A stretch of DNA of 31,684 bases from Eledone cirrhosa (lineage: Eukaryota). A program made the position numbers and the translations under genes. How positions within the stretch are numbered: position 1 is the stretch's first letter; each line of letters opens with the position of its first letter. The stretch lies in contig CAXHJY010000583.1 in the NCBI GenBank assembly GCA_964016885.1, positions 1 through 31,684 on the forward strand. Reading direction: 5' to 3'. The notes under the pieces are model-generated. The model saw only the letters and a list, made by a program, of their open reading frames with translations. It made no database searches and was not told the DNA's origin. Positions 1,779-31,520 of this stretch are shown here, piece after piece.

Positions 1779-4700
1779 CATCATCATCATCATCAACGTT
1801 TAACATCCGTGTTCCACGCTTGCATGGGTTTGGACGGGGGTAGTCCCACTTGAGGTAAGAGTGATTGTCTTGCTCGCATAGGACTGTCTGGCAGGTTTTC
1901 TACAGTTGGATGCCCTTCCTAACACCAACCACATTTACAGTGTGGGTCTGGGAGGTTTTTACCGTGTTGCCTACACGGCCACATTACAGCGTGGACTGTG
2001 TGTTTTTTGTCGTGACACCTACACGATCTCATTTGTTTCGGCCTGGATGGCGCGGCACCAACATAACTTTACATAGAACGGGGTGGTGTGGATGGGGTGG
2101 GGGTGGTGGCGGGACGGGGTGTATTTTGTTAGAGATGCCTACTGGCAAGGCGGGTCTTCTCTGTTACTGAGTACCGCCAAAGGTCTCGGTCCAGTGACAT
2201 TGTCTTGGAGAGGTGTAAGTGTGTGAGGTCGGAGTTTATCAGCTCATCCCATGTTTTTCTAGGTCTGCCTATTCCGTGGCTACCGTCTATCTTTATTGCC
2301 CTGCACTTTGTTATACAGCTATCGACTTTCATGCGCATCATGTGTCCATACCAACGCAGCCTTCTCTCGAGTAAACAACATCTGATCCCTCTTATCTCTA
2401 ATTTTTTAGTTCGTTTATGCTTTGCCGTTCACGTATATTACTGTTACACATCCAGCGGAGCATGCAAGCTTCGTTCCTCTCTAGTCTGCGTATATCCTCT
2501 GCACACAATGCCCAGGTCTCACTATCATGCAACATTGCTGTTCGTATGCAGGCATCGTACAACCTGCCTTTCATTTTTAGGGAGAACCCTTTAGCAGCTA
2601 ATAGTGGTATAAGCTCTCTGAACTTTTTCCAACCAGTTCTGACTCTAGCTACAGTACTTTCAGAGCACCCTCCCCCACTGCTGATTTTATCGCCCAGGTA
2701 ACGGAAGCTGTCCACTATTTCTATAGAACCCTCTGCGCAATTGAAAGAGCTAGTATTTTGTGGGCACTTGCTGCTACTTATTGCACCAGAACACCGGCCA
2801 CATGTAAAATCTATGTTCTTAGTTAGCTTACCTGTGATCCCACTACATCTTTTATGCACCCATACTTTGCATTTAGGACATAAAATGGAGTTTCTACCTA
2901 CGCCTTTCCTACACACCGAGCACGACCATTTCCCAGAAGGGACCGCCGCCTTGTTTTCTTTCCTACAAACTAGAACTTTGGTCTTAGCCAGGTTAATTTT
3001 AAGTCCTTTTGACTCTAGGCCGTGCTTCCATGTTTGGAATTTCTTCTCTAGCTCGGCCATTGATTCCGCTATGAGTGTCAGGTCGTCTGCGTATAGGAGT
3101 TCCCATGGGCAGCCTGTCTTGAACTCCTCTGTTATAGCCTGAAGGGCAATAATAAATAGTAGGGGGCTGAGAACAGAGCCCTGATGGACGCCAACTTTTA
3201 CGCTAAACTCTTCACTATATTCGTTGTTAATTCTAACCTTGCTGACTGTTTCTTTATACATGGCTTGTATAGCCCTCACAAGCCATTCGTCAACGCCTAG
3301 TTTTCTAAGAGCCCACCAGATAATGGAGCGGGGGACTCTGTCGAAGGCTTTCTCCAGGTCGACAAAAGCTAAGTAGAGGGGTCTACCTTTAGCTAGGTAC
3401 TTCTCCTGTAGTTGTCGTACTATGAAAAGGGCGTCTGTGGTGCTTTTGCCTGACACAAACCCGAACTGCATTTCATCTAGGTCAATTCTCTCTCTGATTA
3501 GTTGCGCTATTACTTTTTCCGTGACCTTCATGACCTGGTCGATTAATTTAATGCCTCTATAGTTACTCCTATCTAGGGCGTCTCCTTTACCCTTATAACA
3601 GTTAACGATGATGCTGCTATGCCAGTCCTTCGGAACAACCCCATTCTGTACGACTTGGTTAACTATGCGGGTGACCATGGTGTGTCCCACCGTGCCAGAT
3701 GCCTTCAGCATCTCAGCAACTATTTCCGAAGGCCCAGCCGCCTTACCCGTCTTCATATCCTTGATTGCCTTACTTATTATACTCCCCTCGACTAACACTG
3801 CTGGTCCCTCTATCGGGTCGATATGGGGGAGACTGTCTTTCTCCCATTTATTCTCCTCATTTAGTAGCCTTTCATAGTGACACTTCCAAGCTACCTTCTT
3901 ATCAGTGTCGGTGATGGCAAGTATGCCATCATCGTTAAGTACACACTTCTCCCCGACAATATCACGGTTTTCCTTGACGCATTGCCTGGCAATCCTGAAC
4001 ACCTCACGTTTTTGGTCATCGCGTTGTAGAACATGCTTGAACTTTCTTTCCTCAGCTTCCCTTCTTGCTAAGTACACTTCTCTCCTAGCTTCCCTCCTGG
4101 CCACTTGATAGTCTACTCTACTTCCCCCATCCCGCCATACTTTCCAAGCCTGCTTTTTGGCCTTAATTGACCCCTCCACCCTACTGTTCCACCACCAAGT
4201 TACTCTCCTCCTGCCTACAGGCCTGCTCCAGCCACAGACTTCGTCTGTCGCCAACAGCAGGTTTGCTTTCAGAAATTCCCACTGTCCCTCTATATTGTCC
4301 GATTCTAGATGCTCTTCCTTACTGTCGAAAGCATCAAGTAATATGCTTTGAAATTTATTTCTGGCTGTGGGGTCCTTTTGTTTCCATATTTTCCTCCTGA
4401 GGATAGTTCTCTTCTGCTGTCGAGTACGTCTCGTCCTGACTATGAGGTCGCTAATTATCAGTCTATGTTGGGAGGTGCATTCTTCATTGGGGAGGGATTT
4501 AGTGTTTACAACAGACACTCTGTCACGTCTTCTGGTAAGGATATAATCTACCTGGCTTGTGTGTTCCCCTGATATATAGGTGATCAGGTGATTGTCACGT
4601 TTTTTGAAGTTAGTGTTACAGATAGTTAGGTTATTTGCATCACAGAATTCCAGGATTCTGGAGCCTTCCTCATTTCTAGTACCAAACCCATAGCCTCCAT

Positions 4701-5103
4701 GGATTTCGTCGTAGCCGTCACAATGTTGTCCAACGTGACCATTTAGGTCGCCTGCAATAATTATATAGTCACTGTCAGATATTTGGGAGGTAGTTAGCAA
4801 CAGTGTCTCATAGAATCTGTCTTTTATAGTGCCGGGCAGTCCGGATTGGGGTGCGTACGCAGATATTACTGTCACCGTAGTTTTATTGAGGACAAGTCTT
4901 ATTTTAATTATTCTGTCGTTCACTCTATTTACGTCTATTAACTTATCTGCCCACTTTTCTGCTACCATGATTCCTACTCCACCCAGCCCATCGTCGTTTC
5001 CCACCCAGAAAAGCTTATAACATCGTTTTTTACCCTCAATGAATCTAGCAGACCCACCCCTCCACCTGGTCTCTTGAATACAACAAACATCGACCTCCTT
5101 ACG
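1779..5103 (-). mobile_element. Nearly full-length, 5'-truncated RTE-clade LINE (family A) with ~330-bp 3'UTR and (GAT)n tail
   Basis: Single ORF with APE and RT. Tail reads (CAT)n on + at 1779-1795, 3'UTR is 1796-2128, and both ends join TA repeat directly. Confidence 0.96.
2129..5103 (-). pseudogene. RTE ORF: APE endonuclease + RT + PHD finger, with one 4-bp deletion frameshift near 2405
   Basis: The frame is open upstream of the listed start to 5103 ([14 protein letters not shown]). APE motifs: SAYAPQ, GDLNGHVG, QVDYIL, SQHRLI. RT motifs: [48 protein letters not shown]-terminus has RLRWYGH and GRPRKTW. Near 2400 the sequence is AATTTTTTAG versus AATTTTTTCCTTAG in the other copies. Confidence 0.95.
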
Positions 5104-5104
5104 T

Positions 5105-30164: not shown

Positions 30165-30670
30165 AGTAGAATAATTGAGTATCGGAAAATCAGCTCACGA
30201 GCTTACGATAAACAAATTCGAAATGAGCGCCAGAGGGCTCAATAATTCAGATAAATCAGAGCTATAACTATCGTTAAAATACCAACACACAAAGAACATG
30301 TCTCAAATCAACCATACGACCGAAAAATTACGACCAGGAAGATTCGGGTCACTCAGATAAAATATCAATATATCAATAAATCATATGAATGTAAAAAGCT
30401 TACCCGGACCCACTAGAGAGATGGTAAATCTAGATTCTTGGGTTTCTGCAATTCCTTAATACGCCCCCTATCAGCCCACATAAAAATATATAAGACTTCT
30501 AGAGAACGGACGGACCGGAACACTTTATCAACGGGTCTTGTCCAAACGAATAAAAAAGCTAACCCTAGCTGAGACGCACATGGTGTCCAGCAAGGGAGAT
30601 AACCTCTATATCCACGAAAGATTTTTGGTAATGTGGGAAACCGCATATCGAATAAGAGTGCTCAAAGGAC
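30165..30670 (+). other. Unassigned ~500-bp complex island; possibly a decayed L1/Tx1-type ORF2 C-terminus
   Basis: Unique within the window and flanked by TA repeat. Broken frames give ILGF..., KYIR...E...HERFLVMW, loosely resembling L1/Tx1 C-termini, but no intact CCHC motif. Confidence 0.25.
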
Positions 30671-31083
30671 ATATATATATACATATATATATACACATAT
30701 ATATATATACATATATATATATATACATATATATATATACATATATATATATACATATATATATATATATACATATATATATATATACATATATATATAT
30801 ACATATATATATATACATATATATATATACATATATATATATACATATATATATATACATATATATATATACATATATATATATACATATATATATATAA
30901 ATATATATATATACATATATATATACATATATATATATATATACATATATACATATATATATATATATACATATATACATATATATATATACATACATAT
31001 ATACATATATATATATACATATATATATATACATATATATATATATATATATACATATATACATATATATATATACATATATA
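30671..31083. repeat. (TA)n/(TATACA)n microsatellite
   Basis: Directly visible. Confidence 0.97.
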
Positions 31084-31520
31084 TCATCATCATCATCATC
31101 ATCATCAACGTTTAACGTCCGTGTTCCACGCTTGCATGGGTTTGGACGGGGGTAGTCCCACTTGAGGCAAGAGTGATTGTCTTGCTCGCATAGGACTGTC
31201 TGGCAGGTTTTCTACAGTTGGATGCCCTTCCTAACACCAACCACATTTACAGTGTGGGTCTGGGAGGTTTTTACCGTGTTGCCTACACGGCCACATTACA
31301 GCGTGGACTGTGTGTTTTTTTGTCGTGACACCTACACGATCTCATTTGTTTCGGCCTGGATGGCGCGGCACCAGCATAACTTTACATAGAACGGGGTGGT
31401 GTGGATGGGGTGGGGGTGGTGGCGGGACGGGGTGTATTTTGTTAGAGATGCCTACTGGCAAGGCGGGTCTTCTCTGTTACTGAGTACCGCCAAAGGTCTC
31501 GGTCCAGTGACATTGTCTTG
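31084..31520 (-). mobile_element. Short 5'-truncated RTE family A copy (last ~26 codons + 3'UTR + tail)
   Basis: Near-identical to 1779-2206; (CAT)n at 31084-31107; [25 protein letters not shown]. Confidence 0.95.

Follow-up and report, generated by a model that had tools for sequence, protein, structure and literature searches.

In a 31,684-nt stretch of the genome of the octopus Eledone cirrhosa (contig CAXHJY010000583.1), all eight (GAT)n tails, seven belonging to RTE-type LINEs (long interspersed nuclear elements), the other to a short interspersed nuclear element (SINE), were found to adjoin TA repeat, four on each strand. This whole stretch is referred to below as the window, and all junction counts and P values given here come from it. 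We see about an even chance that the pattern reflects a soft, family-level preference for TA, in which nicks are made at T|A and the tail pairs with AT, and which would operate without dedicated microsatellite recognition. An earlier note on this DNA had placed the tails of all seven LINEs and the SINE on TA in both orientations, and had recognised two LINE families and a SINE; both observations hold, families A and B being related to one another and the SINE sharing a body with A and a 3′ end with B. The window is made up of 15,098 bp of TA array (48%), 11,856 bp of RTE and SINE copies (37%) and 4,730 bp of other sequence (15%), which corrects the previous estimate that elements fill about half of it. 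The array and the RTE and SINE features are listed below; untranslated region is abbreviated UTR, open reading frame ORF and reverse transcriptase RT.

853–31684, no strand: interrupted (TA)n array, 15.1 kb in total, with C interruptions nearly all on the plus strand; the insertion target
1–805, minus: family A LINE fragment, older (93–94% identical to the young copies), its tail lying beyond the window edge
1777–5103, minus: young family A LINE, 5′-truncated within the APE domain, (GAT)6 tail on TA
2398–5103, minus: ORF of this young family A LINE, with APE, RT and PHD (Pfam)
2791–2922, minus: PHD finger within the RT, amino acids 728–771 (Pfam PF00628, E 1.3e-5)
10298–10578, plus: 5′-truncated SINE whose body resembles the 3′ UTR of family A and whose 3′ end is of family B type, tail on TA
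13330–13922, minus: 3′ piece of family A, part of it duplicated in tandem (period about 112 bp, 123-bp match), (GAT)7 tail on TA
16258–17407, minus: family B LINE with a short 3′ UTR, PHD at about 16942–17073, tail on a TA variant
17936–20222, plus: compound family A copy, decayed tail on TA
26967–27145, plus: short 3′ end of a young family A copy with a (GAT)7 tail, set apart from the next copy by 43 bp of TA
27189–29944, plus: young family A LINE, (GAT)7 tail on TA, PHD at about 28791–28922
31083–31520, minus: young family A 3′ fragment, (GAT)8 tail on TA

Over the 20 nt that follow the tail, the share of TA and AT steps was 0.63–0.89 in all eight cases. The junction sequence is GAT|A in seven copies; in the eighth it is GATG|TATAC, which has an overlap of ATG. 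All are compatible with a T|A nick, the phase of which is ambiguous. The tails at 20222 and 10578 are imperfect (GAT) repeats. The 5′ ends of the eight copies all differ, as previously claimed for the seven LINEs, and all abut TA; the position of the family B 5′ junction is corrected from 17414 to about 17407. A fold-back junction is seen at 26967–26996, where the short copy starts, at its 5′ end, with 11 nt that are the reverse complement of its own sequence further downstream.

The claim that no copy is nested in another element has to be qualified at two places. The left-edge fragment (1–805), a ninth copy, meets non-TA sequence at its 5′ junction, over about 45 bp, and the copy at 17936–20222 is a LINE–LINE compound. 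The first 395 bp of this copy (17937–18331) are 94.4% identical to the young family; the repeat of this stretch that comes next is at 86.3%, and neither TA nor a tail lies between the two. The second part (18333–20222) is diverged, at 81–86% to the young copies. The resulting head-to-tail 404-bp repeat (17937–18735), whose halves are unequal in age yet share a stop-codon variant, is ascribed to template switch or gene conversion.

Target choice in the TA array

The probability that all eight tails fall in TA is 0.0027 when taken against the whole window, and 0.008–0.037 (mean 0.017) under uniform sequential insertion in all possible orders; these values, like those that follow, carry no correction for the way in which the window was chosen. 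The same outcome has P = 0.35 if nicks are made only at TA steps and P = 0.61 if they are made only at T|AT, because the array is far richer in TA steps than the elements are (density 0.42 versus 0.065, or 6.5-fold) and 22-fold richer in TAT. The window alone is weak proof of targeting and cannot settle the question of preference. In the mechanism that we propose, T|A steps would be cut on one strand by the element endonuclease, and the AT end so released would be the primer with which the (GAU)n tail pairs. A preference of only two or three bases would, given the dense TA and TAT steps, turn the 15-kb array into a strong sink, and the near absence of nesting would follow from this.

Both halves of this mechanism have precedents in the RTE clade. 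LINEs and SINEs of the clade use target-primed reverse transcription with an overlap of one to several bases between tail and target, and they show a “Tn-TA” insertion signature: they nick at T|A, and where they insert depends in part on their microsatellite tail at the 3′ end (PMC6007223, PMC13295347). In view of this published work, the premise that RTE elements have no relevant preference is not supported. The pattern in the window is real and partly explained by the known signature. We infer the nick phase, the tail pairing and any genome-wide bias, taking the T|A nick and tail overlap to be as in other RTE-clade elements. Like the Tn-TA elements (Bov-B, the Sauria SINE, plant RTE and the Au SINE), the window families combine APE and RT in one ORF, a 3′ stem-loop with tail, and T|A-compatible junctions with overlap. 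The Tn-TA elements are, however, dispersed and need an upstream T stretch, whereas all window copies lie in a TA array without such a stretch and carry a PHD finger within the RT.

The earlier note had gone further, suggesting an endonuclease or priming preference for (TA)n that might involve recognition of cruciform DNA. Some TA bias is retained here, a nick-site or priming preference being its likeliest cause. Cruciform-directed insertion predicted long pure TA runs, but the runs at the 3′ sites average 8.75 nt (range 2–15) against an expected 7.96 nt (P = 0.34); this part of the proposal is unsupported because the sites do not lie in longer runs.

Flanks of related elements in other hosts and octopuses

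A pattern search for the 3′ stem-loop gave 47 matches (38 metagenome loci, 8 genome loci and 1 viral locus), of which 12 were dropped as chance and 3 had no tail, leaving 32 genuine tailed ends. Scores were obtained for the 28 of these whose flank was 12 nt or longer; L007 and L013 are one site. The TA-step share stayed below 0.5 in all 28 and averaged 0.19, as opposed to 0.63–0.89 in the window. TA flanking is accordingly not lineage-wide and, since most relatives in other hosts have no TA flanks, the bias is probably a family-level one, although the count is weakened because TA flanks are often lost from contigs assembled from short-read metagenomes. On viral contigs, pattern searches gave 6, 1 and 3 matches, the single one and the set of three being chance, and no related locus was found. 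Animal-type LINE 3′ ends were also seen in four bacterial metagenome-assembled genome records of one series (L045, L049, L050 and L051), which are likely to reflect host contamination of those genomes.

One distant family departs from its relatives. Locus L040, which belongs to a separate clade with 46% amino acid identity, carries at 1–3992 a full-length LINE preceded, head to tail, by a short element of 310 bp and an upstream tail, and its three tails are all on TA, the last TA run extending for about 60 nt up to the contig end. When (GAT)3 or longer runs were collected from L007–L052, ATATA came next in 3 of 46, all three in L040. We take this locus as an independent hint that some families go beyond the known RTE signature.

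Octopus genomes give some context for these observations. Simple repeats make up 7.45% of the 2.8-Gb O. vulgaris genome and RTE elements 106 Mb, or about 3.8% (PMC13282606), so that the window is some 6-fold richer in simple repeat and 10-fold richer in RTE, if the species are comparable. Among the MELT calls for an O. bimaculoides RTE, a TA-repeat string is given in 11 of 211 rows, 5 as duplications and 6 as deletions (PMC9115989). By arithmetic on the “null” and gene counts of that file, at least 40 rows carry any string for a target-site duplication (TSD) or deletion; the TA type therefore accounts for about a quarter, which would fit enrichment without exclusivity. In part 2 of the file, 6 of 17 rows are flagged as low-complexity. 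The available part of the same paper reports no target preference for octopus RTEs.

Competing accounts of the TA flanks

Several observations weigh against a soft TA preference. TSD-like matches of 3–21 nt flank the copies, but their mean of 12.0 nt is close to a background of 11.5 nt (P = 0.41); TSDs of RTE-clade LINEs are about 7–15 bp. The T-stretch half of the Tn-TA signature, a run of T about 10 nt upstream, is absent and cannot occur in a TA array. All eight non-RTE segments of the window likewise abut TA. After tails ending in GAT, the next base in the relatives is T in 11 of 13 cases and A in 2, so the lineage default does not favour ATA and the octopus clade may have moved away from it. 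Finally, the O. bimaculoides element behind the MELT calls may differ from families A and B, and low-complexity calls are error-prone.

It is rather unlikely, in our judgement, that the elements have no preference at all and that the window is a TA-saturated, gene-free sink, picked because it is striking, in which any insertion would be TA-flanked and kept. TA makes up 76% of the non-RTE sequence, so that P for eight of eight rises to 0.11 once the RTE copies are left out of the window, and both the TA-flanked non-RTE segments and the scores of the 28 relatives fit this account. The sequential-insertion values given above do not, and a single clade dominates the window although O. vulgaris has 3,343 transposable element families (PMC13282606 supplement). 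The loss of TA flanks from short-read contigs also lessens what the relatives can say in its favour. The non-RTE segments were used as controls, the principal ones being as follows.

23475–25336, plus: likely Penelope-like element with TA on both sides
23470–24156, plus: GIY-YIG-like ORF of the likely Penelope-like element (feature score 0.96)
9071–11824, no strand: 279-bp unit in three copies (starts 9071, 9889 and 11546) that are akin to the terminal part of the Penelope-like element

No Pfam match was obtained for the GIY-YIG-like ORF; GIY-YIG is found in 18% of the members of one matching cluster. The element also has an inverted terminal piece with a hammerhead-like core. Such cores were identified by motif only in four segments (917–1452, 9071–9349, 21031–21843 and 23475–25336), with no Rfam match and no significant folding. 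Because of the GIY-YIG-like ORF in one case and the cores in four, these non-RTE segments are, to judge from sequence, likely to be Penelope-derived. Penelope-like elements have a microsatellite insertion bias of their own, including one for (TA)n in Naiads (PMC8557442), and for that reason serve badly as a neutral control, giving no proof of a neutral sink and not setting the RTEs apart. The Naiad and Neptune elements resemble the window system in their (TA)n bias and unresolvable TSDs, and likely Penelope-like pieces share the array with the LINEs; their GIY-YIG endonuclease and pseudo-long terminal repeats are, however, machinery unrelated to that of the window LINEs. The 279-bp units are 99–100% alike and were triplicated together with their TA flanks, SINE and LINE lying downstream, which on sequence grounds is a recent local tandem duplication. 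The cores and inverted ends suggest that several Penelope-like or retrozyme families lie within one array. A further 499-bp non-TA segment (30169–30667) has TA on either side. Rfam microRNA matches in the window were rejected as TA artefacts below the gathering score.

Strict, evolved (TA)n targeting by the octopus clade (A, B and the SINE), with recognition of the repeat as such and most genomic copies in TA arrays, in the manner of microsatellite-specific R4, Tx1 or NeSL-like families, is in our view unlikely. It would account for all eight tails and their eight 5′ ends lying in TA, for seven tailed LINE copies of one clade within 31 kb, and for the head-to-tail cluster in L040 with its short TA spacers, where three of three tails are in TA against 0 of 43 others. 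A preference of two or three bases is already sufficient to produce the window pattern, however, as the P values of 0.35–0.61 indicate, and pure TA runs are not longer at the sites. Residues unique to the window protein and L040 number 11, no excess over the 0–31 found for eight controls. One 5′ junction is non-TA and another is LINE–LINE, most resolved MELT sites are non-TA (the element may be a different one), and the target is not common to the lineage, with none of the 28 related ends TA-rich and only L040 on TA.

Microsatellite-specific non-LTR elements, which are without long terminal repeats, do exist, among them Dong, Waldo, Mino, Kibi and Koshi. They resemble the window system in having independent 5′-truncated copies in one simple repeat; they differ in belonging to other clades, several with a restriction-like endonuclease, and in a specificity that is genome-wide, whereas here one window is at hand. 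Togen, on (TG)n, and some HERO families are further cases (PMC4640811). For the hagfish SINE1-1_EBu, no strong target preference is reported (PMC7245038). No report of (TA)n targeting by RTE elements was found in the literature searched, Repbase and subscription journals being outside its coverage.

It is about as unlikely that a PHD-bearing RTE lineage switched at least twice, in the octopus clade and in L040, to strict (TA)n targeting, perhaps aided by the PHD finger. This finger lies between the KTK and FxYLG motifs of the RT in 107 of 120 homologues, from octopus, the hydrozoan Hydractinia, a catfish and many metagenomes; its eight Cys/His ligands are invariant in 28 aligned sequences, and its best match among solved structures is the Pygopus PHD. 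No description of a PHD finger inside an RTE RT was found in the literature searched, with Repbase and subscription papers outside coverage. As a sufficient cause of TA bias the finger was rejected: relatives without the bias carry it too, so it cannot explain the bias alone.

Whichever of these accounts applies, the array likely pre-dates the insertions. Its C interruptions keep to one chromosome strand (983 TACAT versus 69 ATGTA in the window), and 3′ flanks read in the sense of the element are TACAT-rich in the four plus copies and ATGTA-rich in the four minus copies. A repeat derived from the tail would track the element, whereas the interruptions track the chromosome strand. Together with the differing 5′ ends, this strand-polarity test upholds the claim of independent insertions, here into a pre-existing array. 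Local duplication of the LINE copies was rejected, because both their 5′ ends and their orientation relative to array polarity differ. That TA arrived with or after the elements, as part of the tail or by later expansion of the tail or TSD, is highly improbable: a 3′ repeat of (TA)n is given for platypus Plat_RTE1 (PMC6007223 Table 2) and RTE tails do resemble microsatellites, but flank polarity tracks the chromosome strand in eight of eight cases, TA is also present at truncated 5′ ends, and relatives with the same tail mostly have no TA. The array itself shows two local irregularities, an imperfect 160-bp hairpin at 15655–15814, which is 87.5% self-complementary, and a switch to G interruptions at 25941–26140 that is likely to be a local inversion.

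The LINE families and their SINE

Family A contributes seven pieces to the window, four young (98.7–100% alike) and three older; the copies at 27189–29944 and 1777–5103 are 98.7% identical across 2,752 bp. Family B is present as one copy with about 68% DNA identity to family A. Families A and B form one clade with an Octopus bimaculoides protein (SH-aLRT 100 in a tree of 41 rows made by a quick method), which is also the closest named protein, at 64% identity over the C-terminal region searched. The RTE label of both families is provisional, resting on architecture and motifs, as the RT tree was built from rows without any named RTE reference. APE and then RT domains were matched in a single ORF (Pfam Exo_endo_phos and RVT_1), and the predicted model of the longest ORF (mean pLDDT 75.7) had L1 ORF2p as its best fold match (E 1.6e-29). 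RTE-clade LINEs have a single ORF of about 1,050–1,150 amino acids and no ORF1; open frames in nine related loci span 1,020–1,147 amino acids, and every window copy is 5′-truncated. At the endonuclease end of the ORF at 2398–5103, Gln replaces Asp before the last catalytic His, as in 59 of 59 homologues read, and the hairpin loop is 2 residues shorter than in L1. The same Gln and shorter loop are reported for plant RTEs, and this Gln is reported as absent from animal ones (PMC6007223).

LINE and SINE share a 3′ stem-loop followed by the microsatellite tail. The 5-bp stem shows a two-sided change between A and B, and the motif recurs in the 32 tailed ends from other hosts; folding z-scores for it were not significant. 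Copy number is very high: 39,432 reads of one restriction site-associated DNA (RAD) run and 18,629 contigs of one assembly mapped to a 540-bp 3′ region, which was searched in 4 of 19 runs and gives depth over the body rather than over tail and flank. The SINE is likewise high-copy, with unmatched read ends that fit it in 4,505 and 7,939 reads. No match to the families was found in the four of eight transcriptome supplement files of PMC9115989 that were searched.

The SINE matches the family A 3′ UTR at about 81% over 104 bp and has a B-type 3′ end. Its body (10405–10507) is carried within the family A 3′ UTR at 29729–29831, and upstream of the L040 ORF there is a motif like it. The 3′ end of family A may thus be bipartite or come from capture of a SINE, and unmatched ends in reads indicate that the SINE-body motif is common to many other families. 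No Rfam match to the SINE was obtained at gathering score; it may bear a CORE-like resemblance. A comparable architecture is that of the Ceph-SINEs, which join a CORE piece, an RTE 5′ UTR piece and an RTE tail (PMC5786205). The window SINE is similar in having a LINE-shared body and a family B 3′ end and differs in having no tRNA head, a comparison made by architecture. Among octopus LINEs, RTE-2_OV and the O. bimaculoides RTE are polymorphic and, like the window families, have a microsatellite at the 3′ end (PMC9115989). RTE-2_OV is said to carry a C2H2 finger where the window families have PHD.

If the bias is soft only, the window represents an extreme yet expected outcome of the known T|A signature in a TA-rich genome. 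If it is real genome-wide, the RTE clade would join the LINEs with microsatellite-biased families, and related families with and without the bias, sharing the same (GAT)n tail, would offer a natural pair for the study of APE target choice. It would then also follow that short-read studies of octopus genomes undercount such copies. RTE proteins are under development as gene writers that integrate at random (PMC13708176), and a variant biased towards TA arrays would, in the same event, be useful for that purpose. A separate lead, toward possible chromatin-guided insertion, is offered by the PHD finger that lies within the RT. Were strict targeting to prove true in the octopus clade and L040, these would be the first microsatellite-specific RTE elements.

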